Source of the DNA: Thermodesulfovibrio sp.
GTDB lineage: Bacteria; Nitrospirota; Thermodesulfovibrionia; Thermodesulfovibrionales; JdFR-85
Length of the DNA stretch: 35,625 bases
NCBI GenBank assembly: GCA_027050975.1
Contig: JALUAR010000215.1
Coordinates: forward strand, 2,375 to 37,999
Reading direction: 5' to 3'
This document shows positions 8,190 to 33,174 of this stretch, piece by piece; the first letter of the stretch is position 1, and each line of letters begins with the position of its first letter. Position numbers and translations under genes: made by a program. A model generated the notes under the pieces. That model saw nothing but the letters and a program-made list of their open reading frames with translations, did no database searches and was not told the DNA's origin.

Positions 8190-8203
8190 AGGAGGTGTAT
8201 TCA

Positions 8204-10357: not shown

Positions 10358-10394
10358 ATTATTTCAATTATTTCAGATCATAAGAAATCTATAA

Positions 10395-11270: not shown

Positions 11271-11280
11271 GAGTTAAACA

Positions 11281-13037: not shown

Positions 13038-13041
13038 ACAT

Positions 13042-16963: not shown

Positions 16964-16990
16964 CGTTTGGAACAACTATAGGAAAAGCTC

Positions 16991-18817
16991 ATGTGTGGAA
17001 TAGCCGGTTTTATTTCATTTTCAGACAAGAGAATTGATGAGAATATCCTTAGGAGCATGCGTGACTGCATGGCCCACAGAGGCCCTGATAATGCTGGTAT
17101 ATATATATCTGGTGACAGGACAGTCGGGCTTGCGCACAGGAGGCTGTCTATTATTGATCTTTCTTCTGCAGGTCATCAACCCATGAGCAATGAGGATGGC
17201 ACTATATGGATTACTTACAATGGTGAGATTTTTAACTATCTTGAGCTTAAAAGACTTCTTCAACAGTTAGGCCACTCCTTCAGGTCTAACTGTGATACAG
17301 AGGTGATCATTCACTTATATGAAGAATACGGTGAAGATAGCCTCAACTATCTGAGTGGACAATTTGCTTTTGTTATATGGGATTCGGTAAAGAGAAGAGC
17401 CTTTGGAGCAAGAGACCATCTCGGCATTAAACCTCTGTACTACTATTGGGATGGCTCGACCTTTGTTTTCGGTTCGGAACTAAAGGCTCTCCTTCCTGCC
17501 GTCGGAAAAGGTGAGATCGATTATAGCGCAGTAGCAGACTTTCTGGTGCTCCAGTATGTTCCGTCACCTAAAACCATATACAGGCACATCAGAAAGCTTG
17601 AGGCCGGAACCTGCCTGTTGCTTGACAACGGCGAACTCAGAACAAAACGCTATTGGACACCTCAGCCAGAGCACACATATGATCTCTCGGAAGAGATCAT
17701 TGCTGAACAAATAGATGAGTTGCTGCATAATTCCGTTAAACAGCAACTCATCTCCGATGTGCCTTTGGGAGTCTTTCTCTCAGGTGGGCTGGACTCAAGC
17801 ACGATAACATACTATATGTCGGCTACAACCGGAACCACTGTTAAAGCATACTCCGTAGGCTTTGAAGAGAGGGAATACAGTGAACTTGATTATGCCACCA
17901 TAGCAGCAAACTACATTCCCAACGTGGAACATCACAAATTGATTCTGAAAGCAAGCACTGCCTTTGATCTTATTCAGGATCTCATTCAGACCCTTGACGA
18001 GCCTTTTGCTGATCAGGCAATTATTCCTACCTATCTGATGTCAAGATATGCACGTGAATCAGTAACCGTGTGCCTTTCTGGTGAGGGTAGTGATGAGATA
18101 TTTGGGGGATATGACAGATACAAATCTGCCATACGGACGGTAAAACTTCTGGGAGAGCTAACAAGGGTTAATCCCGAACTCTATCAATACCTCAGAGATG
18201 GTATTGCTCTTAAATACGATGAGTATATTTCCAGTTTATGCTCATTCCGCCCCGGTGAATTACTTTTGTTACTGCACCGAGATGTCAGAGGTTTTGATGA
18301 CTATGTAACAACAAAATTCAGAGAATTTTATGAGAAAATGGCTGTGACGGATGATTTAGAAAAGGTTCAGATGTTTGATGTTTCGACTTATCTATCAGAC
18401 AACCTCCTGTTCAAGGTTGACCGTGCAAGTATGCTCGCTTCTCTTGAGGTAAGGGTGCCGTTCCTTGAACCCAGGCTTGTCAATTTCTGCATCGGTCTGC
18501 CCTTTCATATTAAATACAGGAGCAATCTTCAGAAGTATATACTCAAGAAGCTCATGAAAGACAGAATACCCAACGAGGTTATCTTCCGAAAAAAAATGGG
18601 ATTCTCCGTACCGATATTCGTATGGTTCCAGCAGTCATTCTATGAGTATCTCAGAGAGACTCTGCTTAGTAAGAAGGCAAAGGAAAGAAATATTTTCAAG
18701 CCGCGGTATGTTGAGTCTCTTCTTGATCCGCAAAGGATAACTACTGACAGGCACAACTCGCTGAAACTCTGGTGTCTGTTAGTGCTTGAGGAATGGTTCA
18801 GGAGGTACCATGACTAA
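16991..18817 (+). CDS. asnB: asparagine synthase (glutamine-hydrolysing) family amidotransferase
   Basis: MCGIAG provides the Ntn catalytic Cys2, followed by HRGPD and HRRLSIIDLS..G.QPM. FLSGGLDSS is the PP-loop. The length is 608 aa. Confidence 0.9.
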   Translation: MCGIAGFISFSDKRIDENILRSMRDCMAHRGPDNAGIYISGDRTVGLAHRRLSIIDLSSAGHQPMSNEDGTIWITYNGEIFNYLELKRLLQQLGHSFRSNCDTEVIIHLYEEYGEDSLNYLSGQFAFVIWDSVKRRAFGARDHLGIKPLYYYWDGSTFVFGSELKALLPAVGKGEIDYSAVADFLVLQYVPSPKTIYRHIRKLEAGTCLLLDNGELRTKRYWTPQPEHTYDLSEEIIAEQIDELLHNSVKQQLISDVPLGVFLSGGLDSSTITYYMSATTGTTVKAYSVGFEEREYSELDYATIAANYIPNVEHHKLILKASTAFDLIQDLIQTLDEPFADQAIIPTYLMSRYARESVTVCLSGEGSDEIFGGYDRYKSAIRTVKLLGELTRVNPELYQYLRDGIALKYDEYISSLCSFRPGELLLLLHRDVRGFDDYVTTKFREFYEKMAVTDDLEKVQMFDVSTYLSDNLLFKVDRASMLASLEVRVPFLEPRLVNFCIGLPFHIKYRSNLQKYILKKLMKDRIPNEVIFRKKMGFSVPIFVWFQQSFYEYLRETLLSKKAKERNIFKPRYVESLLDPQRITTDRHNSLKLWCLLVLEEWFRRYHD

Positions 18818-20624
18818 GTGCCATTACTGCAGAAGCAGTACCAAATACATACTCTCTGTCAAAGACGAAACAGGAGGCATCTTCAAAGTAAGGGAATGCC
18901 CGAACTGCTATCTGATAAGTATGTATCCCTTTCCTAAACCGAAGATCGCTATCAGGGCTCTGTCACGATATCAAAAGCAGTATCCGTCATTTGATCCAGT
19001 TTTCGAGTGGCGGGTGTTTCTGGCAAGAAGATATTTTGATGACGGATTCCGGGTATTAAGCATAGGACAGGAAAGCAAAGCTCTTACGAATGTTTTGAAG
19101 CATGAAAATGTTGATTTGATCCAGATCAATGCCATAAGTCCCAGGGATTTCCAGCAGTTTTCGGATGAGGAATTCGATGCTGTCTATCTCTGGGATAACC
19201 TCGGATTTGTATATGATGTCAGGGGATATTTTGCCGAGCTTAAAAGGATTTTAAAAAGAGACGGTTATCTCTCTGTTCGCACCAGGGATGCATTTTCAAA
19301 ATCAAATATTGCAAAAGGCTCCAAGAATTTTTTCAGCGGTACCTGCAACTTCATAGGGAGAAAATTTCTGACCCAACTTTACAGGGAATATTTCAATATT
19401 GTACCTCAGTCATTTATGTTAGAAAACCACGATGACAGCTTCATAATAACCTTTGGAGCTGTAGGCGATGACGCAGCAGTGGATTATAAGATGAAGGTTT
19501 TGATTCTTGTACACCCCTATCTGTTTGCAAACATTGACGATGCCACCGGGCCCAGGGGAAGGGTGCTCAATACAATGGATATGCTGAAACGTTACGGAGT
19601 TCACGCTGATCTGTCATTGTCTCTTGATCCCGGCTCAGAGGGATACGATCTTGTACATCTCTTTCATAATGCCTGGGAGACTCAGGATGCACTTTCTCAA
19701 CTTTGTGCTGTGAAAGAAGAGAATAAAAAGGTTGTTGTCTCAACAATATATATGGACATGTCAGAGACGAACTTCATAATAAACACAATAAACAAGATAT
19801 TTAAAATCCCGAACAGCAATGAGAGAGATGCCTTCCTGCACCAACTGGAAAAGGGTGAATTACGTGCTGGCAACTTATACCAGAAAATGCGTTTTTACGC
19901 ACAGTGGAACCTTGAAGAAGATCAGCGGGCTCTACTTGAGATGGCAGACAGAATAATTTGTTTTTCTTATACCGAAATGCGACAGATGAGTCTGAACCTT
20001 AACCGCACGGCTCCTTTTTCCATTGTATACAACTCTGCTGATGATGATCTCTTCGGAGTTCAGGGGCCTGAGTTCTTTACAAACAGATACGGCATAAAGG
20101 ACTTTGTAATATCTGCAGGGCACGTTGAATGGCGGAAGAATCAACTGATGACTCTTTATGCTTTGCGAGACTATCCTGAAATACCCATAGTTATAGTTGG
20201 TGCTAAAACAGATGATGAATACTATGAACTATGCAGGTTATGGGCCCACAAAAACACTATCTTCATCTCTCAACTGAAACATCGTCATCTTGCCAGTGCC
20301 TTTGCAGCAGCAAAAGTACATGTTCAACCTAGCTGGATTGAAGGAATAGCCCTCTCAACAATTGAGGCTGCAATGTCCGGATGCACACCAGTTGTAGCTG
20401 ACCGGGCCGGCGAAATTGAGTATTACGGTGATCTTGGCCTGTATGTAAATCCTGGCTCTGTTTCATCGATAAGAAATGCTGTGCTTAAGGCATTTAAAAA
20501 CAACCATAAACTGCGAGAAAAAACCCGTAACTTTGTAAGGGAGAGATACACTTTTAAAAAAGCGGTGCAAATGACGATTGATGCCTACAGGAAAACTCTC
20601 TCTAACAGTGAGGATGAACAATGA
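18810..20624 (+). CDS. bifunctional-looking protein: N-terminal Zn-ribbon plus methyltransferase-like domain, C-terminal GT4 (GT1-fold) glycosyltransferase
   Basis: CHYC...x...CPNC forms a Zn ribbon. FDAVYLWDNLGFVYD....F.ELKRILKRDGYL is methyltransferase-like. V.PSWIEGIALSTIEAAMSGCTPVVADRAGEIEYYG..GLYVNP is an EX7E-type GT4 motif. The ATG at 18810 follows AGGAGG, and the track start at 18786 overlaps asnB. Confidence 0.75.
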   Translation: MTKCHYCRSSTKYILSVKDETGGIFKVRECPNCYLISMYPFPKPKIAIRALSRYQKQYPSFDPVFEWRVFLARRYFDDGFRVLSIGQESKALTNVLKHENVDLIQINAISPRDFQQFSDEEFDAVYLWDNLGFVYDVRGYFAELKRILKRDGYLSVRTRDAFSKSNIAKGSKNFFSGTCNFIGRKFLTQLYREYFNIVPQSFMLENHDDSFIITFGAVGDDAAVDYKMKVLILVHPYLFANIDDATGPRGRVLNTMDMLKRYGVHADLSLSLDPGSEGYDLVHLFHNAWETQDALSQLCAVKEENKKVVVSTIYMDMSETNFIINTINKIFKIPNSNERDAFLHQLEKGELRAGNLYQKMRFYAQWNLEEDQRALLEMADRIICFSYTEMRQMSLNLNRTAPFSIVYNSADDDLFGVQGPEFFTNRYGIKDFVISAGHVEWRKNQLMTLYALRDYPEIPIVIVGAKTDDEYYELCRLWAHKNTIFISQLKHRHLASAFAAAKVHVQPSWIEGIALSTIEAAMSGCTPVVADRAGEIEYYGDLGLYVNPGSVSSIRNAVLKAFKNNHKLREKTRNFVRERYTFKKAVQMTIDAYRKTLSNSEDEQ

Positions 20625-23488
20625 TAAAAGTACATGTTATATATCAGTGGTATCTGCCAACAACAATTCAGAGACTAATAAAACCCCTGGACACGTTAAA
20701 AGAGGCCGGAACTATAGAAGTCTCTTACTACGGCATTTTTGAATACAAAAACATCTATATCTCAAACGCTGATGTGATTATCTTTTCAAACATAATAAGC
20801 CCTGATGCAATAGTAATTGCAACTGAGGCAAGACTAAAAGGCATCAGACTAATCTATGATGAATCTATCGAGTCCGAGGCAAATACCCTATCATCTAACT
20901 TCCTGCGCACCTATTATTATGATGTGAGGGCACAAAATGTAAGAGACCGCCTTCTGCGAATGGTGGATCTGGTAATCTCGTCAGATAAGACAATCGTGGA
21001 AAGACATCCACATATAAGACAGCAGTTTAATCACATAGAGAACGTCACGCATGAATGGCTTTATGAAATATTGAAAACAACAAAAATCGCTACATACAGA
21101 GAAAGTGATTGCAAAAAGATATTCTTTATCTCACCAACCTTCATGTGGCCTCATCAATATATATCCGACTTAATGGTTGAAGAACTTATGAGGATGGGAC
21201 ATGATGTCTACCTCTTTACTGTTAAGCCTTCATATTTCCTCCACAAGACAGTATGCAAGCCATCCCGTTTTGAGAACTCTCTATTAAAGGTTATCGAAGA
21301 ATACGCCGAAGATGCATGGAAGATTCCGCTTCTGATTGACAGGTTCGAGCCGGATCTGGTACTTACAATACAGGGGTATGTAATTCCTCGTCAGGTATTA
21401 GCGGAGATAAGAAGCAGAAACCTTCCTTTTGTGGTCTGGTTTTTAGACGAACCCTTTGATGCAATAAGAAGCTGCTCTTACGGTAGATATTTTACCCATG
21501 TCTTTCTGCAGGACAAGGCATCTTTAATGTATCACAGACATTTTGGCAATCCAAACAGCTTCTATCTGCCTTATGCAGCAGCACCAGACATTTCGAAACG
21601 CTTTTCGGAACAGCCAGGAGAGCAACCCAGGTATAAGGTTCATTTGGTGGGAAGTCCATCTGAAAAACGGTTAAAACTTATAGAGAAGCTACAGAGTGCC
21701 GGAATAGAAGTAACTGTTGCAGGGTGCGGATGGACAGGCGCAGAAAAGGGAGTAAATATTGTACAGCCTCGATCATACAACGAGGTATTCAATCTTTACA
21801 GACAGTCTTTAATTAACATCAGTCTTGGTGATACGAAATCCTCCCCTTATAATCCCTCCCAGCTACAGCCATATAGTCCGGATCATGCAACATTTAATAT
21901 TGCAGCATCCTGTGGCTTTCATATTACAGATATTTCTCGGGCAGGTATAACAGAATGTTTTGTTCCTGATAAGGAGATTGTGCAATTTACTGATCTGGAT
22001 GACTGTGTTGAAAAGGTGCGTTATTATTTAGAGCACACTGATGAAATGGAAGCAATTGCAGCTTCAGCATTTGAACGGGTATGCAATGAGCATACCTACA
22101 GACATCGCATAGAAGCAATACTTAAGACAGTTGAAGAGAATGAAATACAACGCAACCTGTCTTTCCATTATAGCATAGGGTATGTCCAGTTCGAATCGGA
22201 AGCCCCAGGATCCGTTGAACAGCTGCCCCCAACTGCTACATTAACAGTTATTACAGAGAGACCATCAAAGAATTATATTGACAACAAAATGCGTCTTATC
22301 CATAACCGTCCAGAAAAGGGGTTCGCATCTGCTGTCAATACAGCTATTTTAAATTCTCCTTCTGATTATATAGTTATCAGTCACTCTTCTTTATGGAGGC
22401 GTCACAGAGAAATTCTCTCTCTTGTTAGTGCATTCAGTAATGATTTGCTTCTCGGCATGATTGTTTTAAAGGACAGAGAAAACTCTGACTTTGCCGGCCT
22501 GATAATACCTGTAAGAGTACTTCTGAGTGCAGGCAGTTTTAAATACAAAAATGCCGAATATTCATTTCTTGATATACGATACAGGATGGAAGAAATGGGT
22601 TATTCAGTGATTGAACATGCTATAGACTCCTCTCCGGTTTCGAAAACGGCATTTTCCTTAGCTGTCTCAGAGGATGAAAGAACGGAATTTATAAAAGAGT
22701 GGACTGATAACCCAGAGAAAAAAATTAACGCTCACAAGATTTTAAATCTCCTGATTGAAAACAATCATAGATTTGATAAAAAAGAAGCCTTATATATAAT
22801 CAAAAGGTCTCTTGAGTTATGCCCGGATTTATACAATGCACACTCAAATCTGGCAAAAATATATTTAACAGACGGAAACATAACCAAGGCTATACAGCAT
22901 CTCGAATACGTATGGAATAGAAAGCCTGAAGATGTGAAAACTGGCCTTCTTTTCTGCATTGCACTAATTATGCAAAAAGATTTCGACCGTGCCAGCAATA
23001 TACTTGACAGTATTCTTAACTCGGAACTTCATCCTTCAGAGAGGGCAAGTGCTTTATATCAGAAAGGCTTGCTGCTAAAAAAGCTTAATCGTCTCGAGGA
23101 TGCAGTTGAACATTTTCTTCTGGCACTCAGGATTGATCCGTCCCATACAAATACATTGAAGGAGTTATCACTGGCTTATCTCGAGTTAGGAGAAACCGAG
23201 GAAGCAATACACATGATGAAAGCACGACTCTCCTTTATGGTTACAGCTGAGACGCTAAATGACGTAGGAGCTTTGTACTGGGTGCTGGGTGACAGGGAGG
23301 TGGCTTATCAATGGTTCGTCAAGGCCCTTGAGTTAGATCCGAAATTCAGAAGTGCAGTCCTGAATGCTGTGACTGCTGGACTTGAGCTTGGTCGCAACGT
23401 GGATGAGATTAAGGACTTTCTTATTGGATACCTTAATTATTATCCAGGTGATGCAGAGATGTGGAGAATTTTTGAAAGCATAAAATAG
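20621..23488 (+). CDS. 955-aa multidomain protein: CgeB-like glycosyltransferase region (DUF3880 plus Glyco_trans_1_2-like), central degenerate GT2-like segment and C-terminal TPR repeats
   Basis: FNIAASCGFHITD......ECFVPDKEIVQFTDLDDCVEKVRYYLEH.DE.EAIA..AFERV.NEHTY.HR is the CgeB-type C-terminal motif. The last 210 aa or so contain repeated A..YL..G....AI......L..DP TPR-like units. Confidence 0.65.
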   Translation: MIKVHVIYQWYLPTTIQRLIKPLDTLKEAGTIEVSYYGIFEYKNIYISNADVIIFSNIISPDAIVIATEARLKGIRLIYDESIESEANTLSSNFLRTYYYDVRAQNVRDRLLRMVDLVISSDKTIVERHPHIRQQFNHIENVTHEWLYEILKTTKIATYRESDCKKIFFISPTFMWPHQYISDLMVEELMRMGHDVYLFTVKPSYFLHKTVCKPSRFENSLLKVIEEYAEDAWKIPLLIDRFEPDLVLTIQGYVIPRQVLAEIRSRNLPFVVWFLDEPFDAIRSCSYGRYFTHVFLQDKASLMYHRHFGNPNSFYLPYAAAPDISKRFSEQPGEQPRYKVHLVGSPSEKRLKLIEKLQSAGIEVTVAGCGWTGAEKGVNIVQPRSYNEVFNLYRQSLINISLGDTKSSPYNPSQLQPYSPDHATFNIAASCGFHITDISRAGITECFVPDKEIVQFTDLDDCVEKVRYYLEHTDEMEAIAASAFERVCNEHTYRHRIEAILKTVEENEIQRNLSFHYSIGYVQFESEAPGSVEQLPPTATLTVITERPSKNYIDNKMRLIHNRPEKGFASAVNTAILNSPSDYIVISHSSLWRRHREILSLVSAFSNDLLLGMIVLKDRENSDFAGLIIPVRVLLSAGSFKYKNAEYSFLDIRYRMEEMGYSVIEHAIDSSPVSKTAFSLAVSEDERTEFIKEWTDNPEKKINAHKILNLLIENNHRFDKKEALYIIKRSLELCPDLYNAHSNLAKIYLTDGNITKAIQHLEYVWNRKPEDVKTGLLFCIALIMQKDFDRASNILDSILNSELHPSERASALYQKGLLLKKLNRLEDAVEHFLLALRIDPSHTNTLKELSLAYLELGETEEAIHMMKARLSFMVTAETLNDVGALYWVLGDREVAYQWFVKALELDPKFRSAVLNAVTAGLELGRNVDEIKDFLIGYLNYYPGDAEMWRIFESIK

Positions 23489-23502
23489 TTTCAGGAGACG
23501 AG

Positions 23503-25194
23503 ATGAAAACTTTCTTAAAAACGTCAATTCAGGTTGTACCTTCAAGGTCAGGAGCCCTGACCTTGAAGGTATCCTCACCGGACGGTCGGGATAGGGCAAT
23601 ACATAGTCTCTATGACCCTGAAAAAGAGGCAGAAGCACTTGTAAATGCTTGCCATTTTGACGGTAAAGGTATTCTTGTAGTATTAGGCTTGGGGCTTGGT
23701 TATCATGTGGAAAAACTTATTGAAAAATATCCTGAAGCTGACATTGTAGTTGTGGAAGCACTTGAGGAAATTTATGAGATGGCGAAGTTAAATAAACAGG
23801 TTGATGTCTTGAAAGAAAGAATTGAATTTATCGTAGCAACTCCCCCTCAGGAGGTTCTTGAAAAGATTACAAAGATGCAGCTTAAGATGGGTATGCCTCC
23901 CCTTGGTGTCTTCATTCTTTCATCTGCTGTTAGCGCATTTTCTGAATACTATCATCCTATAGCTGAAAAGCTTACAGCAGCAACATCCTACAGGCTATGG
24001 GAGAAGCTTCGCTATCCAAAGTTTAAAGCACCTCTCTTGAAAGTCGCAATAATGGACTTTGATTATTTCTTAACCCTTGAGATTGAAAAGGCATTAAGGA
24101 ATCTCGGTCATAAAGTGGTGAGAATAAAAGGCGATCTAAAAAAAGAGAATGCCTCTGACATTCTTACCAAAGTTATCAAAGCGATTATAGATTTTAAACC
24201 TGATTTTCTCATTGCAGTGAACCATATAGCATTTGATGAGGAAGGGATAATCAGCTCATTTCTCAATTCCATAGAAATACCTGTTGCAGTATGGTACGTG
24301 GATAGCCCGACAATTATTGTTAAGGCATTTAGCAAAAATGCCACACCGAATACAGTCGTATTTGTTTGGGATAGGACATACATAGAAGATGTAAAAGCCA
24401 TGGGATTTGAGTCAGTTTACTACTTACCACTTGCAACTGACGAAACAGTTTTTACTCCCCGAAATCTTACACAAGAAGAATTTCAACTGTATGCTGCCGA
24501 AACAGGATTTATAGGAAACTCAATGGTGAGATCAACTGAGGAATATATGGAGAGATTGCCCAGACCTTTACATCCACTTGTAGATAAAGTGGCCCGACCG
24601 ATGAGTGAAAAGAGGCAACGATTTGTTGAGGCTCTCATGATTCTCGATGACAGGGATTTTAAGATACTTAACGCTTGTTCGGAGAAGACAAAGTCTGATT
24701 TTGAGACTGCTGTCTTAAGAAGGGCGACATTTCTGTATCGTCTCTCCTGTATAGAACATCTGTCATCTTTTAATACAGTAATTCATGGTGATAAAGGCTG
24801 GAAAGAGATACTACATGGTGGCTATATTATAAGACCCAAACTTAATTATTACAATGAACTACCCATCTTTTACAATGCCTGCAAAATCAACTTCAATGCT
24901 ACAAGTCTTCAGATGCGGGAGGCTGTAAATCAACGGGTCTTTGATGTTCCGGCATGCGGGGCCTTTTTACTTACAGATCATCAGAAAGCCATTGAAGAGC
25001 TTTTCGAGGTGGGGAAAGAGGTTATCACTTATAAAGAACCGGAGGAGATTCCAGAGCTTGTCAGGTTCTATCTGAGGCATGATACCGAGAGGGAAAAGAT
25101 CGCTACAAGGGCACGAGAGCGAATATTAAATGAACATACTTATGTACACAGGCTACAAAAAGTGATAGATGTGATGAGGAGACTCTATGCATAA
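23503..25194 (+). CDS. 563-aa protein: Maf-N-terminal-like module fused to a CgeB-like glycosyltransferase domain
   Basis: IHSLYDPEKEAEALV....GILVVLGLGLGYHVEKL......DIVVVE resembles the N-terminal region of motility-accessory-factor proteins. It is followed by KVAIMDFDYF...DFKPDFLIAVNH...VWYVDSP (DUF3880-like) and RVFDVPACGAFLLTD.....ELFEVGKEVITY..PEE.PELVRFYL.HD.EREKIA..ARERIL.EHTY.HR (CgeB-like). Confidence 0.65.
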   Translation: MKTFLKTSIQVVPSRSGALTLKVSSPDGRDRAIHSLYDPEKEAEALVNACHFDGKGILVVLGLGLGYHVEKLIEKYPEADIVVVEALEEIYEMAKLNKQVDVLKERIEFIVATPPQEVLEKITKMQLKMGMPPLGVFILSSAVSAFSEYYHPIAEKLTAATSYRLWEKLRYPKFKAPLLKVAIMDFDYFLTLEIEKALRNLGHKVVRIKGDLKKENASDILTKVIKAIIDFKPDFLIAVNHIAFDEEGIISSFLNSIEIPVAVWYVDSPTIIVKAFSKNATPNTVVFVWDRTYIEDVKAMGFESVYYLPLATDETVFTPRNLTQEEFQLYAAETGFIGNSMVRSTEEYMERLPRPLHPLVDKVARPMSEKRQRFVEALMILDDRDFKILNACSEKTKSDFETAVLRRATFLYRLSCIEHLSSFNTVIHGDKGWKEILHGGYIIRPKLNYYNELPIFYNACKINFNATSLQMREAVNQRVFDVPACGAFLLTDHQKAIEELFEVGKEVITYKEPEEIPELVRFYLRHDTEREKIATRARERILNEHTYVHRLQKVIDVMRRLYA

Positions 25195-28114
25195 GGAAGG
25201 ACAAAAATTGAGAATTTCAGTATCTATGATAACGTTAAATGAGAGAGAGAACATTGAGAGAGCACTCTGCTCCTGCAGCTTTGCCGATGAGATTGTGGTA
25301 GTTGACGGAGGCAGTACAGACGGCACACTTGATATACTCCGCAAGCATGATAAGGTTGTATTGATTCAGAATCCATGGAATGGACATTTCGGGCAGCAGA
25401 GACAGATCTCTCTGGAGCACTGCAGTGGTGACTGGGTGATCAGGCTTGATGCCGACGAGGCATTCAGTGAGGAGTTTGAAAAAGGTATAAGAGAGCTTCT
25501 TGAAAGGACCCCTCCCGAGGTTGTGGGATATCATATCAGACAGTGTAATCTTGTTGGCAATGAAAAATTCTACTCAAAGGGACTTGACTACTTTGAGGTC
25601 TTTCCAAGAATCTGGCGTAACAGGCAGGGCATCAGATGGGAAGGGCATATTCACGAAAAACCAGTAGGCATAGATGGAGAAACAAGACATTGGGATGTCT
25701 ATGTGGTACATTACGGCTTTTTAAATAAGCAGCGTTATGCAGGAAAGGGACAGTTCTATTCCACTATTCCGGATTCCGGTTACAGCAAACCCGAAGAGTT
25801 ACTCTTCAGGGAGTATGACATCCAGCCCCGTCCTCCAAGATCAAAGGTCTCTTCCAATGTTCCGGCCTTTCCATTACCCAGTAATAATTTACAACCGAAG
25901 ATAGCAATTCTCAGAGGTCGGGGTTTCCATATAAATGAAATCAAAGCATACGAACCTCTGCTTGAAGAGTTCGCTGTAGAGGTCTATACTAAAAGCAATT
26001 CTGCTATCCCTCATGACCACTCTCTGATTCCCGTAGTCAGACTGCCCGACAGAAGCATAGACCCGCCGTATCAGCCATCTGATCCGGAATATATGATCGG
26101 TCTCGAGTTTGCTCTGTTTGATTGCGATCTGATTTACCTGGATAGTATGACCAGCATCTACACTCTTCAGGCCATCGAGCTCAAGAAGAAGTTTTCTAAA
26201 CCGATTATCTGCCTGCAGAAAGAGGTGCCTGATGTTTCAGATCATACAAGGGCTTACATAAAGGGACAGGCTGTATGCTGGATAGATTTCTTTATAGTCC
26301 CATCCTCACAAGTAGCAAGAGCATTGAGACATCTGGGTATTGCAGAGGAAAAGCTGACAGTGATCCCCTATTTTAAGGATACACGTGGAATGCCTCCAGA
26401 AAGAATATCAAGAAGACTGTCACAGATTTTCAGAAACATTATAAATGCCTCAGCAAAAAACGATATCGCAATTGTTTATGAGACTTCACATGATTCCAGT
26501 TCCCCTCAACATGAGCAGACCTTCTCCTCTCTTGTTGAGGCATTTAAACAAGATCCTGACAATAAAGATGTGGTGCTGAGACTTACAAAACGTCTTAAGG
26601 AGACGAATCGATTCGATGAGGCAAAAGGATATTTAGAGTCTTATCTTACTTATCATCCTCTTGATTTGGATGCCCTGGCGGAGTATGCAGACCTCTGCCT
26701 GTCTCTGAAACAGTACCCTGAGGCTCGGGAGACTATTTCGAAGCTCGAACTGTTCGGCTTTAACGAGGAAGTATTGAAAATCCTCTTGCAAAGACTCTCC
26801 GAAGCAGAGAAAAACTGCAGTAGTGATTCATCACAAACAGTAGATACTGCTTGTTCCGTAAAGCTTCATATTGGTTGTGGCTCTGACTATAAGGAGGGAT
26901 ATATCAATATTGATGGATATGATGCCTCAGTGGCTGATGTTGTTGCCATGGCCCACGAACTGCCTTTTCCAGACGGATATGCTGATCTTATAGAATCACA
27001 TCATCTGATCGAACATCTTTCTTTTGAGGAGTTCAGAGACACCGTAAAGGAATGGTATAGAGTGCTAAAACCGGGAGGCATGCTTGTAGCCGAATGTCCT
27101 GACCTTATTGAAAACATGAAAATATTCCTTAACAGTGACTATAAGAAAAGGTGGCTCTGGTATCGAAACGAGCTACCATTCGGAAGAGTGGCTGCCTTTT
27201 ACGGAAACCAGTTTCATCCGGGACAGTTTCATAAGAATGGGTTTGACAGAGAAAGGCTATCAGGTCTACTTGATGAGCTGGGATTTGTCAGGATCAGTAC
27301 CAGGAGTATAGAAGGGACACCGGAACCTAATGAAAACTTCATTGTAGAGGCATTCAAGCCTCAGGAGGATGAGGAAGGCTTCAGTCTTATACTGCCAACT
27401 TATTCTGCTGCAAAGGAACTGGATCTCTGTCTGAGAAGTCTGAAAAAAAACAGTCGTCTCAAGCATGAACTCATCATCCTTGTAGACAGAGATCGTGAAA
27501 GCGGAGGTTTCAGCCAAAGCATAATCGAGGTTTTGACCAGACACAGGCTTTCCTTTAACATATCCTTCTTCATTAACGATAAAAACTACGGGCCTTATGC
27601 AAGCTGGAATCGCGGAGCAGCAATGGCATCAAGGAAGGTTCTGTGCTTCATTACTGATGACCAGTATTTTGCACCCGACTGGGATATTAATCTGAAAAGA
27701 CATATAGAGGATGACAGAATTCTGACCTCTCAGCTCGTTGAGCCAGGGATAATAGGTGTATGGAAGGACAATATTGAATACAACTGTGGTGTTAATCCTG
27801 ACGAGTTTGATGAAGAGGCATTTCTGCAGTTTGTTGCAAATATGGGAAGGTCGGAGATTGTTGAAGGTGGCTTCTTTATACCTCTTGTAATGTTCAGAGA
27901 GACCTTTCAAAAGATTGGCGGCTTTACAACAGATGACAGTTTCGGAAGGTTTGATAGTTCCGGCAGGCACATGGCGTATCCCCATGACGTACTTTTCATA
28001 AAGAGGGCTGAGGAGATGGGCATCAGACTTTATCAGGTAAAAAACAGCTTTTCCTATCACTTCCAGGGAAGCAGCTGGAGAGCAAAGGAGAGAAAAGGGG
28101 TGTTAAGGAGATGA
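25187..28114 (+). CDS. 975-aa megaenzyme: GT2, GT-B-like segment, TPR, Methyltransf_11 and a second GT2
   Basis: ISVSMITLNERENIERAL.S..FADEIVVVDGGSTDGT with RLDADE is the first GT2. DPDNKDV.LRL.K.L.E..RFDEAK.YLE..L..HP.D is TPR-like. LHIGCGSDYKEGYINIDG...LKPGGMLV.ECPD is a methyltransferase. FSLILPTYSAAKELDLCL.SL is the second GT2. Confidence 0.7.
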   Translation: MHKEGQKLRISVSMITLNERENIERALCSCSFADEIVVVDGGSTDGTLDILRKHDKVVLIQNPWNGHFGQQRQISLEHCSGDWVIRLDADEAFSEEFEKGIRELLERTPPEVVGYHIRQCNLVGNEKFYSKGLDYFEVFPRIWRNRQGIRWEGHIHEKPVGIDGETRHWDVYVVHYGFLNKQRYAGKGQFYSTIPDSGYSKPEELLFREYDIQPRPPRSKVSSNVPAFPLPSNNLQPKIAILRGRGFHINEIKAYEPLLEEFAVEVYTKSNSAIPHDHSLIPVVRLPDRSIDPPYQPSDPEYMIGLEFALFDCDLIYLDSMTSIYTLQAIELKKKFSKPIICLQKEVPDVSDHTRAYIKGQAVCWIDFFIVPSSQVARALRHLGIAEEKLTVIPYFKDTRGMPPERISRRLSQIFRNIINASAKNDIAIVYETSHDSSSPQHEQTFSSLVEAFKQDPDNKDVVLRLTKRLKETNRFDEAKGYLESYLTYHPLDLDALAEYADLCLSLKQYPEARETISKLELFGFNEEVLKILLQRLSEAEKNCSSDSSQTVDTACSVKLHIGCGSDYKEGYINIDGYDASVADVVAMAHELPFPDGYADLIESHHLIEHLSFEEFRDTVKEWYRVLKPGGMLVAECPDLIENMKIFLNSDYKKRWLWYRNELPFGRVAAFYGNQFHPGQFHKNGFDRERLSGLLDELGFVRISTRSIEGTPEPNENFIVEAFKPQEDEEGFSLILPTYSAAKELDLCLRSLKKNSRLKHELIILVDRDRESGGFSQSIIEVLTRHRLSFNISFFINDKNYGPYASWNRGAAMASRKVLCFITDDQYFAPDWDINLKRHIEDDRILTSQLVEPGIIGVWKDNIEYNCGVNPDEFDEEAFLQFVANMGRSEIVEGGFFIPLVMFRETFQKIGGFTTDDSFGRFDSSGRHMAYPHDVLFIKRAEEMGIRLYQVKNSFSYHFQGSSWRAKERKGVLRR

Positions 28115-30981
28115 GCAGCGGTTACAATATTTTGACATTCAATTGGCATGAAGGCTATCTTTATACTCTTTCAAGGATAGGACATCATTTTGATATTGTG
28201 CCACGTCTAAAGGGCGGATACAGCGACTGGATGTACCAGTTTCGTCCTCTTCCGGCAAACGCCTCTCTTGTTACGGAAGATATGGCCAGAGCCAACCTCA
28301 AGGCTGATAAATATGATTGTGTAATCTGCCACAATTTATTAGACATTTTTGATGTCTCATCATTTAATGTGCCCAAGATTCTGATTTTTCATACAAAACC
28401 GTCTGCTCTCTTTACTCCTGAAGGTTTACCTGTAAACAAATCTTTATTTATATCCGATTTAAAGAAACTTACCTGTTCCAGTGATAGACTGTTGATTGTT
28501 TTTGTTTCCGAAGCCAAAAAACAGGCATGGGGCATAGATGGTACCGTCATCCCTATTGGCATAGACATAAACGATTACAAAACATATAGAGGTGATCTCG
28601 AGAGTGTCTTAAGAGTAGGTCATTTCTTAAAAGCCAAGGACACGCATTACTTTGACCTAAAAAAAATCGAGTTTCTGCTTAAAGACATTCCTGTTAGTAC
28701 TCTTGGAATAAATCCTGATATTTCGGAAGCAACCCTTTCCAGAGACTGGGATGATCTGAAAGAACATTATGCCGCTCATCGTCTTTACTTTAACACCCTT
28801 TACGAAGAGCTTGATGATGGATACAATATCTCGATGGTAGAGGCAATGGCAACGGGAATGCCTATTGTCTCAGTTGAAAACAGTACATCTCCGATCAAGG
28901 ATAGTGTTAATGGCTTCATTTCTAATGATATGGGATATCTGAGGAAGCGAATTAATGAATTACTGAATAATCCGTCTCTGGCCAGAGAGATCGGAGCTGT
29001 TGCACGTGAGACTGCTTCAAGGATGTTTAAATTAGATGATTTTATTGACAGATGGCACAGGGCTATTGAGACGGTAACGGTTAAAAGACCGGGAAGCAAA
29101 TTGCTTGGTTCAGGTCTTGCAGAGAAGAATTCAATGTCGGTTTCTACTCCTGACAATAACACCTCCGCAGCCAGCGCTGTTAATGTATCAATCTCCAGGA
29201 ACTCAACTTTTGATAATAATATAAAAATTCTCCGTGAAAAACAACCTGATCTGGCAGAGATCTTGAGCAGGACAGTCCCTTCTTCAGAATACAAAAAAAA
29301 AAAAAAAAAAAACGGTGAAAAAACTCTCAGGATAAACAATACAACTCTACATAGCCTTTATGATCCATCAGGAGAGGCTGAACTCTGGCTAACATCATAT
29401 CAAAACATCACCCCAAATACATCTGTTTTGGTTGTTTTAGGCTTCGGGCTTGCCTATCACATTGAAAAGCTCTGTGGTGCCACTGATAAAGAGATTATCG
29501 TCATGGAGCCGGATTTGAAAACCCTGAGGATAGCCCTTTCCGTGAGAGACCTGCAACATGTTCTTAAAAGGATTAGCATCATTACTGATTATTCTCTCCC
29601 TTTCATAAAACAGAGATTTACAACCCTGGAGTTTTTACCTTCGGTAAAACTGCATCCTCAGTATTTCGAATTTGTTAAGTCAAGGCTACAGCTAAACAGA
29701 AGGATGCAGAGAGGACTGAAAATCATGGTGGTAGGGCCTATTTATGGCGGTTCGCTTCCTATTGCTCAATTCTGTGTAGAGGCATTAGGTAACTTAGGAC
29801 ATAAAGTGGATTATGTAGACAATAGCATATACAAGGATGCCTATCTTTCGATCACTAAAATTACATCCAACCGAAGAGTACAGGATCTGCTCCGTGCCAG
29901 TTTCATTAATTTCGCCTCCGAGGCTGTACTGGCACGTTGCGAGGAATTTCAACCTGATATTCTCTTTGCCCTTGCACAGGCTCCGATTAACGAAACTACT
30001 CTATTAAAACTGAAATCTACCGGTGTTCCCACTGCTTTCTGGTTTGTAGAGGATTACAAATTGATGACATATTGGGAGCAGATAGCCCATCTTTACGATT
30101 ACTTTTTTACAATCCAGAAAGGAGAGTTCTTTAGCGCATTGAAAGCCAGAGGAATAAAAAACGTTCATTATCTGCCACTGGCTTCATCTCCTTCTGTACA
30201 CAAGCCTTTAAATCTCTCGGAGGAGGAAAGAAACCTGTATGGCAGTGACATCTCCTTTGTAGGCGCAGGTTATTACAACCGTCGCTGCCTCTTCGAAGGT
30301 CTGCTTGACTTTGACTTCAAAATATGGGGAAACGAATGGGATATGAGTTCCTCTCTTGGGAAATTTATACAACTTGAAGGCAGACGAGTGGATACCGAAG
30401 AGATCGTAAAGATATTTAATGCATCTAAAATCAACATTAACTTACACTCTTCACCATATCATAAAGGTGTAAATCCGGATGGCGATTTTGTAAATCCGAG
30501 AACATTTGAGATAGCTGCTTGCGGTGGTTTTCAGCTGGTGGATCAACGGTCACTGCTTCCGGAGTTATTTGAGATCGACAAAGAGATTATCTGCTTTACC
30601 GGCCTTGAGGATCTAAGAGCAAAAATAAGGTTCTATCTTTCACGCCCGGAAGAGCGACAGGAGATCGCTCAAAGGGCTCGAGAACGGGTCTTGAAGGAGC
30701 ATACGTACGAACTGCGTATGCAGGAAATGCTCTCTTTTATATACGAAAATGGCATAGAGCTACCAGCCTGGAGCACTTCGAGACAGTCAATAGACACTAT
30801 GATTGAAGAGGCCGGGGAAGACACGGAGTTGAGGGCTTATCTTAGCCAGTTTTATGACAAAGGAAGCATAGATCTTGATGACATTATTGAAAATATACAG
30901 AGCGGAGAGGGGTCTCTCTCCAGAGTTGAAAAGATTTTTCTCTTAATGAATCAGATGAAAGATGTTTATCTCCAGAAGTGA
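28111..30981 (+). CDS. 956-aa fusion: N-terminal GT4 glycosyltransferase, Ser/Thr/Asn-rich linker, Lys6, Maf-N-terminal-like module and CgeB-like glycosyltransferase domain
   Basis: GYNISMVEAMATGMPIVSVENS..PIKDSVNGFI is GT4. LHSLYDPSGEAELWL....VLVVLGFGLAYHIEKL....EIIVMEP is paralogous to the N-terminus of 23503..25194. RTFEIAACGGFQLVD.....ELFE.DKEIICF..LEDLR.KIRFYLS.PEERQEIA.RARERVLKEHTY is CgeB-like. Confidence 0.7.
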   Translation: MSSGYNILTFNWHEGYLYTLSRIGHHFDIVPRLKGGYSDWMYQFRPLPANASLVTEDMARANLKADKYDCVICHNLLDIFDVSSFNVPKILIFHTKPSALFTPEGLPVNKSLFISDLKKLTCSSDRLLIVFVSEAKKQAWGIDGTVIPIGIDINDYKTYRGDLESVLRVGHFLKAKDTHYFDLKKIEFLLKDIPVSTLGINPDISEATLSRDWDDLKEHYAAHRLYFNTLYEELDDGYNISMVEAMATGMPIVSVENSTSPIKDSVNGFISNDMGYLRKRINELLNNPSLAREIGAVARETASRMFKLDDFIDRWHRAIETVTVKRPGSKLLGSGLAEKNSMSVSTPDNNTSAASAVNVSISRNSTFDNNIKILREKQPDLAEILSRTVPSSEYKKKKKKNGEKTLRINNTTLHSLYDPSGEAELWLTSYQNITPNTSVLVVLGFGLAYHIEKLCGATDKEIIVMEPDLKTLRIALSVRDLQHVLKRISIITDYSLPFIKQRFTTLEFLPSVKLHPQYFEFVKSRLQLNRRMQRGLKIMVVGPIYGGSLPIAQFCVEALGNLGHKVDYVDNSIYKDAYLSITKITSNRRVQDLLRASFINFASEAVLARCEEFQPDILFALAQAPINETTLLKLKSTGVPTAFWFVEDYKLMTYWEQIAHLYDYFFTIQKGEFFSALKARGIKNVHYLPLASSPSVHKPLNLSEEERNLYGSDISFVGAGYYNRRCLFEGLLDFDFKIWGNEWDMSSSLGKFIQLEGRRVDTEEIVKIFNASKININLHSSPYHKGVNPDGDFVNPRTFEIAACGGFQLVDQRSLLPELFEIDKEIICFTGLEDLRAKIRFYLSRPEERQEIAQRARERVLKEHTYELRMQEMLSFIYENGIELPAWSTSRQSIDTMIEEAGEDTELRAYLSQFYDKGSIDLDDIIENIQSGEGSLSRVEKIFLLMNQMKDVYLQK
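29293..29312 (+). repeat. 20-nt homopolymeric A tract inside the 28111..30981 CDS (encodes KKKKKK-N)
   Basis: Counted directly: tac followed by 20 consecutive A residues, then cggtgaaaaaactctcaggataa. It is the longest homopolymer I found in the window. Confidence 0.95.
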
Positions 30982-30991
30982 GGCTTCGAAC

Positions 30992-32707
30992 ATGAAAGAG
31001 GTCCTTATAATAAATCTAACAAGGATGGGTGATCTTATCCAGACCACCCCGGTAATACAGGGACTCAAGGAAAAGTACCGGGATCTAAGAATTACCCTGC
31101 TTGCAAGCTCCTCATTTGCTTCTATTTGTAAGCACCTGCCATTAATTGACCGGGTTATTATCTTTGACATTAAGAAGGTAATCGATCTTGTGACAGGTGG
31201 TCGTATTATCGAAGGATACAGATACGTCGAGGAAATTCTTGACACTATAAACGATACTCGGTATGACCTTGCCGTTAACTTCACGCATTCCGCAGATAGT
31301 GCGGTACTTACGTCGTTGATAAACACAAAAGAGGTGCGCGGAATAAGTATGGATGCCGAGGGATATAGTGTTAAGAGACATCCCTGGATCAGATACTTCT
31401 TTAATGTAATACCCAGCAGAGAATTTAATCCTTTCCATCTCTGTGATATGCATCTGAAGGTATGTGAGGTATCTCCTGTAAAAAAAGGTCTGCATTTGAA
31501 TGTGCCTGATGAGGCGATGCATTGGATTAATGAGTTGCTTGTAAGAAAAAGATATAACTCTAACGGTCCTGTAATAGCACTTCAGTTAGGAGCCAGTGCA
31601 GAAGATAAAAGATGGCCTGTAGCCTCTTTTGCTGCCCTTGCAGATCTTCTGCAAAAAGAGCTTGGAGCTACAATAATTCTCACAGGTGCTCGGAATGAAA
31701 CAGAGTATGGTGTTGAATTTGAGCGCCTCTCAAGGGCAGAAATAATCAATCTAATTGGAAAGACCGATCTTTCCCAGCTGTCAGCCACATTAAAAGGTTG
31801 CGACCTTTTGATTAGCAACGATACAGGCCCTCTGCATATCGGCACTGCCGTGGGCACTACGGTAGTAAACATATCTCTGGCTTCAGTTCATTTCAGGGAA
31901 ACCGGTCCTTACGGAGAGGGTCATTATGTGATCGTTCCCGAAATTGCCTGTTATCCATGTAACTTCAGGTCTGACTGCAAAACCACCTTATGCAAGAAAA
32001 CGATATCGCCTGAAACGGTTCTTAAGCTGGTAAAGCTTATCTTTTCAAAAAATGAAATAGATAGCTTAGCACAGGCCCCTGAATGGGAGCAGGTACAGAT
32101 ATTTAAGTCCTTCTTTGACAGCAACGGGCTGATAGAGTACATGCCTCTCATAAAAAACAGACCGATTCATAAAGCCACCCTTTTTACCCATATTTATCGT
32201 GAAACGTGGTTGAAAATACTAGACAACAACAGGTCGATTGATTATGAGAACCTGTATCTGAAGGTCTTAAACAAACTAACCACATGGTATGATATACAAA
32301 CATTACGCAAAATATTGTCTGAAATCGAAGAGACAGAAGCACTGGAAAGGCTTGAAAAGTTTGCAGACAGTCTGCTCTCGATTCTTGATGTTATCACCAG
32401 GGAAATTCGGAAGCCCGATCACAATATTGAGCTTATAAAAACATTATGGAAGAGTGTACCACCCATTGACGAGGAATTAGAAAAGTTAGGCTGTCTTTAC
32501 CCCTCTATCAAACCGATAATTATTTTGTATAAATACGAAAAAGAATCCCTTGAAGGAAGCAGTGAGGTTGAGATATTAACTGACGCAAAGAGAATGTATC
32601 GGAACATTAAAGAGCACGCTGCTGTTTTGAGACAGATACTTTTAAAGCTTCGGGCCTGGTCTGCCATCGAAGGCAAAAAACCCTTGACTCAACAGGCTAT
32701 CTTATAG
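30992..32707 (+). CDS. glycosyltransferase family 9 (heptosyltransferase-like) with a C-terminal extension of about 230 aa of unknown function
   Basis: VLIINLTRMGDLIQTTPVIQGLKE.Y....ITLLA, then LQLGAS...KRWP...FA.LADLL, LIGKTDL.QL.A.LK.CDLLISNDTGPLHI..AVGT are GT9 motifs. The ATG at 30992 avoids overlap with the upstream gene, unlike the track start at 30962. Confidence 0.8.
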   Translation: MKEVLIINLTRMGDLIQTTPVIQGLKEKYRDLRITLLASSSFASICKHLPLIDRVIIFDIKKVIDLVTGGRIIEGYRYVEEILDTINDTRYDLAVNFTHSADSAVLTSLINTKEVRGISMDAEGYSVKRHPWIRYFFNVIPSREFNPFHLCDMHLKVCEVSPVKKGLHLNVPDEAMHWINELLVRKRYNSNGPVIALQLGASAEDKRWPVASFAALADLLQKELGATIILTGARNETEYGVEFERLSRAEIINLIGKTDLSQLSATLKGCDLLISNDTGPLHIGTAVGTTVVNISLASVHFRETGPYGEGHYVIVPEIACYPCNFRSDCKTTLCKKTISPETVLKLVKLIFSKNEIDSLAQAPEWEQVQIFKSFFDSNGLIEYMPLIKNRPIHKATLFTHIYRETWLKILDNNRSIDYENLYLKVLNKLTTWYDIQTLRKILSEIEETEALERLEKFADSLLSILDVITREIRKPDHNIELIKTLWKSVPPIDEELEKLGCLYPSIKPIIILYKYEKESLEGSSEVEILTDAKRMYRNIKEHAAVLRQILLKLRAWSAIEGKKPLTQQAIL

Positions 32708-32745
32708 TAATGTAGTCATAATTATATCTAATAGCAGGAATTTTT

Positions 32746-33174
32746 ATGGAGAACAATAAAGACAAACAGATTGCTCTTTTAGAGGCGTTAAAAAAAGGGA
32801 TTACAGAGGTTGGAGACCTCATTAGCATCGCATCGGAGGGGCTGGTTCAGTGTGCAACACTTTTAAGAGTTGATCAGTCAGAAAAGGTGTTTTCAAACCT
32901 CTCTGAAGGACTTAAAAGCCTGAATGCCATTATTGATTTTATAGTACAGGTTGAAAAAGGAATTGACCAGCTAAACACCCAGGGATATAATATTTCAAAG
33001 GACTCTCTTGCATGCTGGGGAAAATCAATTCCTGTTTTTGAGGAGATGCTCTCTGCTTTCGAATCAAAGGACTGGGTTACAGTATGCGATCTTATACAGT
33101 ATGAGATTGATCCCCTTTTGAAGGAAGGAGAGCAAGGACTCAAGTCACTTCTTGAAATCCTCAATACATATTAA
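32746..33174 (+). CDS. hypothetical acidic, predicted all-helical 142-aa protein
   Basis: A clean ORF with no competing frame. I recognised no family motif. It is the last gene of the island, immediately upstream of the second sigma28 promoter. Confidence 0.5.
   Translation: MENNKDKQIALLEALKKGITEVGDLISIASEGLVQCATLLRVDQSEKVFSNLSEGLKSLNAIIDFIVQVEKGIDQLNTQGYNISKDSLACWGKSIPVFEEMLSAFESKDWVTVCDLIQYEIDPLLKEGEQGLKSLLEILNTY

Follow-up and report, generated by a model that had tools for sequence, protein, structure and literature searches.

Introduction

According to one source, the flagellin glycosyltransferases described so far are all of the Maf or FlmG type (bioRxiv 10.1101/2022.03.25.485807). FlmG of Caulobacter and Brevundimonas, which uses CMP-activated pseudaminic or legionaminic acid (Pse/Leg) as donor, recognises flagellin via a tetratricopeptide repeat (TPR) domain at its N terminus (PMC7591256; bioRxiv 10.1101/2022.03.25.485807). 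Maf, represented by the Magnetospirillum magneticum structure (PDB 5MU5), combines an N-terminal domain (Pfam PF20157, Maf_flag10_N) with a sialyltransferase-like GT-A domain (PF01973, MAF_flag10/DUF115) and a C-terminal helical domain. In its published description, the Maf N-domain is a degenerate Rossmann fold in which four strands combine with five helices; its similarity to methyltransferases is weak and its function unclear (PMC11339370). A further relevant enzyme is CgeB of Bacillus subtilis, a 317-residue protein that acts on the spore crust and has been proposed, on preliminary evidence, to O-glycosylate Thr112 of CgeA from a UDP-sugar (PMC13577073). Here, we describe gene A, the second of three paralogous glycosyltransferase genes in a 35,625-nt stretch of DNA from Thermodesulfovibrio sp. 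of the phylum Nitrospirota (assembly GCA_027050975.1, contig JALUAR010000215.1, positions 2,375–37,999; hereafter the window, to which all positions refer). Gene A combines a Maf N-domain-like (Maf_N-like) module with a CgeB/YkvP-type glycosyltransferase, and it lies in a glycosylation island behind the flagellar filament genes.

Gene A carries a CgeB/YkvP-type catalytic domain

Gene A (Table 1) is preceded, 5 nt 5' of its start, by an AGGAGA Shine-Dalgarno sequence graded as strong, and residues 33–86 of its product read IHSLYDPEKEAEALVNACHFDGKGILVVLGLGLGYHVEKLIEKYPEADIVVVEA. Three Pfam families match the protein above their cut-offs: Maf_flag10_N (24.4 bits, cut-off 23.5, with residues 53–124 aligned to profile positions 110–188 of 228), DUF3880 (43.9 bits, residues 263–341; YkvP_N under newer Pfam release names) and Glyco_trans_1_2 (126.3 bits, residues 418–555). 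The last two belong to the CgeB/YkvP pair (PF12996 and PF13524), of which CgeB is the founding member and which is found in order and above gathering scores in gene A, in gene B and in the open reading frame (ORF) at 20621–23488, as well as in 72/72 members of the A family. MAF_flag10/DUF115 was absent at E ≤ 0.01 from the same three genes, and likewise from the 72 family members. A sequence-only reading of this DNA had placed the ORF and its motifs at these coordinates and had assigned the catalytic part to DUF3880 plus Glyco_trans_1_2 rather than to DUF115; ORF, translation, Pfam matches and the structural model described below all agree with it.

In the AlphaFold2 (AF2) model of full-length A (pLDDT 89.8, pTM 0.80), the catalytic part has the two-Rossmann GT-B fold. 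Its best Foldseek matches are GT4-type GT-B enzymes, namely ManT (7qsg), BshA (3mbo), GlgM, PimB', TreT and MshA, at E values between 1e-9 and 1e-7 (best 1.4e-9). For BshA, MshA, PimB', GlgM and ManT the target-normalised TM-score is ~0.6, whereas sequence identity is only 8–12%, and these enzymes differ further in having small-molecule or lipid acceptors and no N-terminal Maf-like module. The motif NQRxFD is invariant in the catalytic part across the 72-member alignment, and a gap in the A/B alignment reveals a helical insertion at about residues 342–420 of A that is missing from B. Sequence and model together indicate that A and B are probably cytoplasmic GT-B glycosyltransferases of the CgeB/YkvP lineage, with a fold like that of the GT4 enzymes that use nucleoside diphosphate (NDP) sugars.

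Gene B has the same succession of domains, with Maf_flag10_N (32.1 bits, residues 433–488), DUF3880 (61.5 bits, residues 643–721) and Glyco_trans_1_2 (153.4 bits, residues 727–874). Residues 16–555 of A align with residues 401–874 of B at 24% identity (BLASTP, E 1e-31). The additional N-terminal GT1 domain is a fusion in the B gene of the window, as B orthologues are mostly free-standing proteins of ~590 residues; nearly all matches in the B-family search already carry precomputed PF20157 and PF13524 annotations. In ORF 20621–23488, DUF3880 (25.5 bits, residues 272–345) and Glyco_trans_1_2 (91.7 bits, residues 352–501) are followed by TPR repeats, no Maf_N module was found by Pfam, and identity to A is 34% over the C-terminal half (BLASTP, E 3e-17). 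These domain positions and alignments bear out the earlier claims that the module pair recurs at 29347..30740, that the CgeB-like part recurs at about 21115..22135, and that the three genes are paralogues. No TPR match was found by Pfam in A, nor in the Maf_N/GT-B portion of B.

The A family comprises at least 745 homologues of ~560 residues with 48–76% identity, the closest of which (76%) is encoded on a contig labelled Nitrospirae bacterium. A scan of NCBIfam yielded no model matching gene A, and the window sequence itself is held by one public run only, from a hydrothermal vent metagenome. In three of the related loci (L069, L070 and L021), the A orthologue is shortened or split into two or three ORFs, which are maybe pseudogenes or assembly errors.

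The N-terminal module and the Maf N-domain are homologous

The first 170 residues of A, and the corresponding part of B, are indicated by sequence comparison and structure prediction to be homologous to the N-terminal domain of Maf. Maf_flag10_N is detected in 68/72 members of the A family and in all 26 of the 26 B-family modules (best E 3.2e-14), and the score of the A module rises to 27.8 bits when the module is scanned alone. The two modules are themselves related over 138 columns (hhalign probability 99.8%, E 3.6e-29). In a search of the PDB, the B-module profile returned 5mu5_A as its top and sole significant match (E 3.2e-4), in an alignment spanning Maf residues 119–173, MVCLGLGLGYQL...IHIVEPNFDFL. 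The B module opens with the helix FDNNIKILREKQPDLAEIL, followed by LHSLYDPSGEA, LGFGLAYH and IVMEP; across the B family these elements take the form FEKNLxxLxxxDPxLA (helix), LHSLYDPxxEA, GFGLGYH and VFEP. The equivalent A-family motifs are HSxYDPxxEA, LGLGLGYH and VVE, with H34, S35, Y37, P39, A43, G62, G64, Y67 and E85 invariant in the alignment of 72 members. In Desulfovibrionales homologues, the module is degenerate.

Since Foldseek searches with the whole protein were dominated by the GT-B part, the N-domain was modelled separately. In the AF2 model of residues 1–178 (pLDDT 87.5), a meander of three strands precedes four parallel strands and five helices, in agreement with the strand and helix count published for the Maf N-domain (PMC11339370). 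In Foldseek, 5mu5 ranks third (E 2.4e-4), its query-normalised TM-score of 0.45 is near the top of the list, and its alignment, at 195 columns, is the longest among the listed matches; class I methyltransferases appear at similar E values (~1e-4), with the top-scoring ones spanning only ~72 columns.

Several results speak against the Maf assignment or limit its extent. The A-module profile alone prefers the O-methyltransferase 2gpy (E 0.0015) over 5mu5 (E 1.4), and PDB searches with the single A sequence and with the full-length A profile found no Maf, only weak O-methyltransferase matches, so that the link to Maf is significant in PDB sequence searches only via the B-family module. Matches to Maf in Pfam and the PDB cover only ~55–80 module residues, and the Pfam match is limited to the central third of the Maf_N profile. 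The earlier proposal that residues ~33–95 are Maf-N-like is nonetheless upheld by the Pfam match above cut-off, by 5mu5_A through the B profile, by Foldseek and by the AF2 fold, and the profile comparison with Maf that it called for is positive, with significant sequence signal in the module core only. Its wording that the catalytic domain had been "swapped" implies a direction of exchange that is not readable from these data; the accurate statement is that one Maf-like N-module is common to two unrelated catalytic folds.

A conserved gene core follows the filament genes

Behind the filament genes of the window, sixteen genes on the + strand span positions 9161 to 33174 with gaps of −32 to +38 nt, and fliC lies 17 kb upstream of A. 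Comparison with related loci resolves this island into a conserved core and a variable part. The core begins with A, usually followed by one multidomain glycosyltransferase/methyltransferase gene, and continues with B, the GT9-like gene and the gene for a small DUF8042 protein; variable sugar-tailoring genes and multidomain glycosyltransferase/methyltransferase/TPR genes are inserted around it. In many metagenome-assembled genomes, from Nitrospirota, Desulfobacterota and other groups, the core comes straight after fliC-flaG-fliD-fliS-fliT. The clearest, minimal case is locus L085, where flgI, flgM, flgN, flgK, flgL, csrA, fliW, fliC, flaG, fliD, fliS and fliT are followed by a 118-residue ORF, A, a 916-residue glycosyltransferase/methyltransferase, B, GT9 and DUF8042, and then by unrelated genes; L084 is arranged similarly, and in L026 gene A begins ~100 nt past the FliT-like gene.

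The GT9-like gene is strictly co-conserved with B, with synteny in more than 30 loci, and its product matches PDB 3tov at E 1.4e-19; the window shows no heptose-synthesis genes. Some loci have two GT9 copies in the order A-GT9-B-GT9. The 142-residue protein was assigned to DUF8042 through the PF26154 genes of L082 (18327–18746), L084 (19538–19981) and L085 (17967–18416), which it matches with phmmer E values of 1e-31 to 4e-39. A motif KDWxxLxDLIxYEL is conserved in this family, and a protein of ~140 residues always closes the A...B-GT9 core.

The tailoring genes at 9161–18817 (aminotransferase, sulfotransferase, radical SAM/SPASM enzyme, three methyltransferases, WbqC-like protein and AsnB-type amidotransferase) suggest, from their predicted functions, an unusual, heavily modified sugar. 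The PseC/ArnB-like aminotransferase scores below equivalog cut-offs and is the sole gene of the island related to the Pse/Leg pathway; a scan of all island ORFs found no NeuB/PseI or CMP-transferase gene, and neither family ranks with the leading neighbours of the core in 10 related loci. Further neighbours in these 10 flagellar loci are, among others, response regulators, TPR proteins, enzymes of the GT2 and radical SAM types, and GDP-mannose dehydratase/RmlD/epimerase enzymes.

Table 1 Features of the window, with positions in nt.
Feature	Position	Strand	Description
fliC	5575-6417	+	Translation read; orthologues Pfam-labelled Flagellin_N/C in L084, L085
flaG	6474-6818	+	Translation read; orthologues Pfam-labelled FlaG in L084, L085
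fliD	6819-8189	+	Translation read; orthologues Pfam-labelled FliD_N/C in L084, L085
fliS	8195-8635	+	Translation read; orthologues Pfam-labelled FliS in L084, L085
FliT-like gene	8632-9024	+	Weak FliT match; orthologues Pfam-labelled FliT in L084, L085
Sugar-tailoring part	9161..20624	+	DegT/PseC/ArnB-like aminotransferase, sulfotransferase, radical SAM/SPASM enzyme, methyltransferases, WbqC-like protein, GT1-type glycosyltransferase, AsnB-type amidotransferase, methyltransferase-GT1 fusion
Third paralogue	20621..23488	+	955 aa: CgeB/YkvP-type GT-B (aa ~165-505), weak GT2-like stretch, C-terminal TPR repeats
Gene A	23503..25194	+	ATG-start ORF, 563 aa; Maf_N-like module, then CgeB/YkvP-type GT-B
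A Maf_N-like module, aa 1-170	23503..24012	+	3-strand beta-meander, HSLYDPxxEA, then 4-strand/5-helix degenerate Rossmann fold with LGLGLGYH and VVVE
A GT-B catalytic part, aa 180-563	24040..25194	+	DUF3880/YkvP_N half and Glyco_trans_1_2 half
Multidomain gene between A and B	25187..28114	+	975 aa: GT2 / GT4-like / TPR / methyltransferase / GT2 (Pfam)
Gene B	28111..30981	+	956 aa: N-terminal GT1 domain (aa ~210-300), Maf_N-like module, CgeB/YkvP-type GT-B
B Maf_N-like module, aa ~366-545	29206..29745	+	More complete than that of A; Pfam 37 bits in two stretches, scanned alone
A20 homopolymer	29293..29312	+	Within the Maf_N-like module of B; encodes KKKKKK(K)
GT9-like gene	30962..32707	+	581 aa, heptosyltransferase-family GT-B with ~240-aa helical C-terminal extension; Pfam Glyco_transf_9; directly after B
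DUF8042 gene	32746..33174	+	142 aa, last gene of conserved core; homologues annotated DUF8042 (PF26154)

The A family is enriched beside flagellar filament genes

To describe genomic context, we sampled 80 loci from species-representative genomes and scored a locus as flagellar if fliC, fliD or fliS lay within 10 kb. This was the case for 21 of the 80 loci (26%). A rough estimate of chance adjacency, assuming a ~4-kb fliC-fliS block, a 20-kb window and a ~3-Mb genome, is ~1%; the A family is strongly enriched beside fliC/fliD/fliS, the co-occurrence that the sequence-only reading had wanted surveyed. The counts are a lower bound, because fliC of the window itself lies 17 kb from A. Among loci with full 10-kb flanks, close orthologues had flagellar genes in 8/20 cases (and B together with the GT9-like gene in 15/20), and distant homologues in 4/16. 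Nitrospirota, Desulfobacterota/'Deltaproteobacteria', Acidobacteriota, Latescibacterota and Pseudomonadota all occur among the labels of the flagellar-linked loci, so that at least five phyla are represented.

An exhaustive profile search returned 1,333 cluster representatives at E ≤ 1e-30 and 23,916 at E ≤ 1e-3. Among the best 150 cluster representatives, about a quarter (roughly 38) are proteins of ~375–430 residues that start at the RYPKF linker and match profile positions ~165–561 only, corresponding to the catalytic unit without the module. One of these module-less relatives lies 1.1 kb upstream of fliC-fliD, on a 5.3-kb contig on which no other glycosyltransferase is visible, and another lies in a dsrAB/methyl-accepting chemotaxis protein (MCP) neighbourhood; most contigs were too short, and of the two module-less relatives with enough flanking sequence one was flagellin-adjacent. 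As a module-less relative adjoins a flagellin gene, the flagellar link is independent of the module.

Comparison with described glycosyltransferases

Compared with Maf, A and B share the homologous N-module, including LGLGLGY and the VEP/VVE strand end, and both kinds of gene occur in flagellar glycosylation loci with several paralogues per locus. They differ in the catalytic domain, which in A and B is a GT-B domain unrelated to that of Maf, in lacking the C-terminal helical domain, and in having no nearby nonulosonate (Pse/Leg) synthesis genes, whereas maf genes are linked to CMP-Pse/Leg biosynthesis. With CgeB/YkvP of B. subtilis, A and B share the same catalytic unit of two Pfam domains, above cut-offs; CgeB, however, has no Maf_N-like module, while A and B have an extra 170-residue N-module and a helical insertion, and their genes are flagellar-linked in hosts not known to sporulate. 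FlmG, compared here by description, resembles A and B as a flagellin-modifying enzyme that pairs a GT-B domain with a separate accessory domain (PMC7591256), and ORF 20621–23488 also pairs GT-B with TPR repeats; FlmG itself, however, has a TPR domain and CMP-Pse/Leg donors, whereas A and B carry a Maf_N-like module and lack TPR repeats. The GlfM–Maf-2 pair of Shewanella is similar in that a glycosyltransferase without an obvious acceptor-binding domain adjoins a small conserved protein (bioRxiv 10.1101/2023.12.03.569772), and the place of the DUF8042 protein at the end of the core recalls GlfM. GlfM, on the other hand, is an 89-residue, FliS/FliT-like four-helix bundle. When the DUF8042 protein was compared as a possible FliS-, FliT- or GlfM-like protein, hhalign probabilities were below 2%, with no relation of the family to FliS/FliT, and a Pfam scan gave nothing meaningful.

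Our literature search, which took in CgeB, DUF3880, Glyco_trans_1_2 and PF20157/Maf_flag10_N/IPR045376, found no paper on a Maf_N plus CgeB/YkvP architecture, and existing database names of A- and B-family proteins are 'CgeB family protein' or 'glycosyltransferase'. The combination appears to be a variant of flagellar glycosylation machinery that has not been described before. More tentatively, and as a possibility to which we would give well under an even chance, A, B, GT9 and DUF8042 could form a third class of flagellin O-glycosylation system with NDP-hexose-type donors, in which Maf_N would be a portable part specific to flagellar glycosylation. Such a class would be widespread in Nitrospirota, Desulfobacterota and neighbouring phyla, and would add probable ordinary-NDP-sugar systems to the known flagellin glycosyltransferase types, Maf and FlmG. 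A portable flagellar module would suggest a common function, for example docking to a partner shared within the flagellar export or chaperone pathway, or nucleotide sensing. The same module on an unrelated GT-B in flagellar loci amounts to a natural domain-swap experiment: since it occurs on two catalytic folds, its function should be independent of catalytic fold and of nonulosonate chemistry. The A, B, GT9-like and DUF8042 genes, moreover, make up a small conserved set that could be reconstituted with its flagellin.

Proposed role of A and B and alternative explanations

We favour, with moderate confidence, a role of A and B in the O-glycosylation pathway of the flagellar filament, as their sequences and gene context suggest. 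The A-B-GT9-DUF8042 core closes the late flagellar operon (fliC-flaG-fliD-fliS-fliT) at its 3' end, and A, B, the GT9-like enzyme and the DUF8042 protein would act together, either on flagellin that has yet to be exported or on a glycan that it already bears. We infer that the acceptor is flagellin or a glycan on flagellin, and within the pathway direct transfer and glycan elongation appear roughly equally likely; the CgeA Thr112 proposal for CgeB provides some precedent for a protein acceptor. As donor, we predict an NDP-hexose or deoxyhexose derivative and not a CMP-nonulosonate: given the lack of NeuB/PseI or a CMP-transferase in the island and the dehydratase/RmlD/epimerase neighbours, the glycan is probably built from NDP-hexose derivatives, which fits a GT-B domain in place of the sialyltransferase-like Maf domain.

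The Maf_N-like module is probably a non-catalytic accessory. It may help partners to dock, as in A–B or DUF8042 contacts, promote oligomerisation or bind a nucleotide, and we prefer a docking or assembly role. Judging by the conserved GxGxG loop and the acidic residue at the strand end, the module may have kept a nucleotide-type pocket, or these residues may form a structural motif. The module is probably not the element that recognises flagellin; this task might instead fall to the TPR-bearing neighbours or the small DUF8042 protein, as it falls to TPR domains or GlfM for FlmG, Maf-1 and Maf-2. ORFs 20621–23488 and 25187–28114 both join glycosyltransferase domains with TPR repeats, the latter including a methyltransferase domain as well, and by the glycosyltransferase-plus-TPR logic of FlmG and Maf-1 they are candidate flagellin-recognising enzymes. 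The suggestion of the sequence-only reading that A represents a flagellin-directed class stands in part. It is supported by the flagellar glycosylation island and the enrichment beside fliC/fliD/fliS, whereas the Maf N-domain is no known flagellin-recognition element and the flagellar link does not depend on the module.

A number of observations weigh against this proposal or limit the flagellin-directed reading. Seven Cloacimonadales loci (L054, L057, L059, L062, L063, L067 and L071) encode the complete architecture but lack flagellar genes within 10 kb; these homologues share 36–38% identity with intact motifs (HSSYYPxxEA, GMGxGYH and IEPD) and are surrounded by methyltransferase, LpoB and XdhC genes, without B or GT9, and flagellar genes have been reported in only 5/46 Cloacimonadota genomes (bioRxiv 10.1101/2021.10.08.463351). 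The acceptor of the Cloacimonadales proteins may be other than flagellin. On a complete Nitrospiraceae chromosome, A sits between GT2 and GT1 genes, again with no flagellar gene within 10 kb. The homologues of A all come from metagenome-assembled genomes, and about a quarter of the best 150 cluster representatives lack the module. Maf-2, which has the N-region and MAF_flag10, cannot bind flagellin without its adaptor GlfM (bioRxiv 10.1101/2023.12.03.569772). Finally, the island has at least seven glycosyltransferase domains, so A could be any step of the pathway.

These points give room for alternatives. A and B may only elongate or branch a flagellar glycan begun by another enzyme, either a TPR-bearing glycosyltransferase (ORF 20621–23488 or 25187–28114) or the GT9-like enzyme, with the Maf_N-like module merely assembling the enzymes into a complex. 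Known flagellin glycosyltransferases do use a TPR domain (FlmG, Maf-1) or an adaptor (GlfM) and not the Maf N-domain (PMC7591256; bioRxiv 10.1101/2023.12.03.569772), residues 1–420 of Maf-1 being insufficient without its TPR domain (bioRxiv 10.1101/2023.12.03.569772); two neighbouring glycosyltransferases carry TPR repeats, TPR proteins recur in related loci, and the strict co-conservation of A, B and GT9 suggests sequential steps. However, the constant genes of the minimal islands are A, B, GT9 and DUF8042, with the TPR-bearing enzymes variable or missing; for CgeB-type enzymes, a protein acceptor has been proposed (PMC13577073); and the module-less relative beside fliC has no other glycosyltransferase in view on its contig. 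We regard elongation by A and B of a glycan started elsewhere as a possible, but not the leading, explanation. A broader option is that the A family consists of general surface-glycan or other protein glycosyltransferases, and that its flagellar adjacency reflects co-located variable glycan islands. The non-flagellar contexts in Cloacimonadales and in locus L081, the module-less relative in the dsrAB/MCP neighbourhood and the 23,916 cluster representatives matching at E ≤ 1e-3 would all be expected in that case; the excess of filament-gene adjacency over the rough chance estimate, its recurrence in five named phyla and the conserved gene order right after fliS-fliT would not, and we consider this option unlikely.

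The N-module raises a separate question, namely whether it is a working S-adenosylmethionine (SAM)-dependent methyltransferase that would make A and B bifunctional methyltransferase-glycosyltransferases. Motif I (GxGxG; G62, G64 and G66) and E85, which closes strand 2, show little or no variation, profile matches to 2gpy and to COMT (E ~0.04) are weak, Foldseek returns the class I methyltransferases mentioned above, and Methyltransf_2 and Methyltransf_25 are found in 14/72 and 9/72 A-family members. Yet the modelled N-domain has only four parallel strands, so that the second half of the seven-strand class I fold and the motif IV region are missing, and the methyltransferase alignments stop at ~72 columns. 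Furthermore, 0/26 B-family modules match a methyltransferase family, neither module shows an hhalign relation to the class I methyltransferases of the island itself, and the Maf N-domain is a described degenerate Rossmann fold (PMC11339370). An active methyltransferase is therefore very unlikely, and a non-catalytic Maf_N-like module in a filament glycosylation pathway remains our preferred reading.

Variation within the island

The sister assembly, in which the A protein is 100% identical, shows that the island varies between strains. There, a TAC>TAA change (window ~26137; L093 12632–12636) splits the 975-residue glycosyltransferase gene between A and B into parts of 316 and 655 residues, and an extra 441-residue sulfotransferase-like gene lies between a 726-residue glycosyltransferase and a 346-residue methyltransferase. 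A gene related to the one at 25187–28114 sits between A and B in many loci.

Past the island, two response-regulator genes lie at 33536–35603, of which the second appears HD-GYP-type by reading of its translation. In related loci, too, response regulators and HD domains are found repeatedly downstream of the core, and there may be regulatory coupling. Promoter and terminator scans of positions 20000–33700 gave counts near those of shuffled sequence.

The A20 tract in gene B (Table 1) is the sole homopolymer of at least 9 nt in the window, and no A or T runs of at least 12 nt occur in 1.42 Mb of related loci. Slippage of the tract by one base in either direction would cut B off at residue ~402–407. 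The tract is identical in the second assembly, from a near-identical strain, where the scaffold stops 46 nt past it; it may be a phase-variation tract or an assembly-fragile site. Poly-G tracts, which may drive phase variation of Campylobacter maf genes, are a parallel, and by analogy the A20 tract in B could make the glycosylation system phase-variable.

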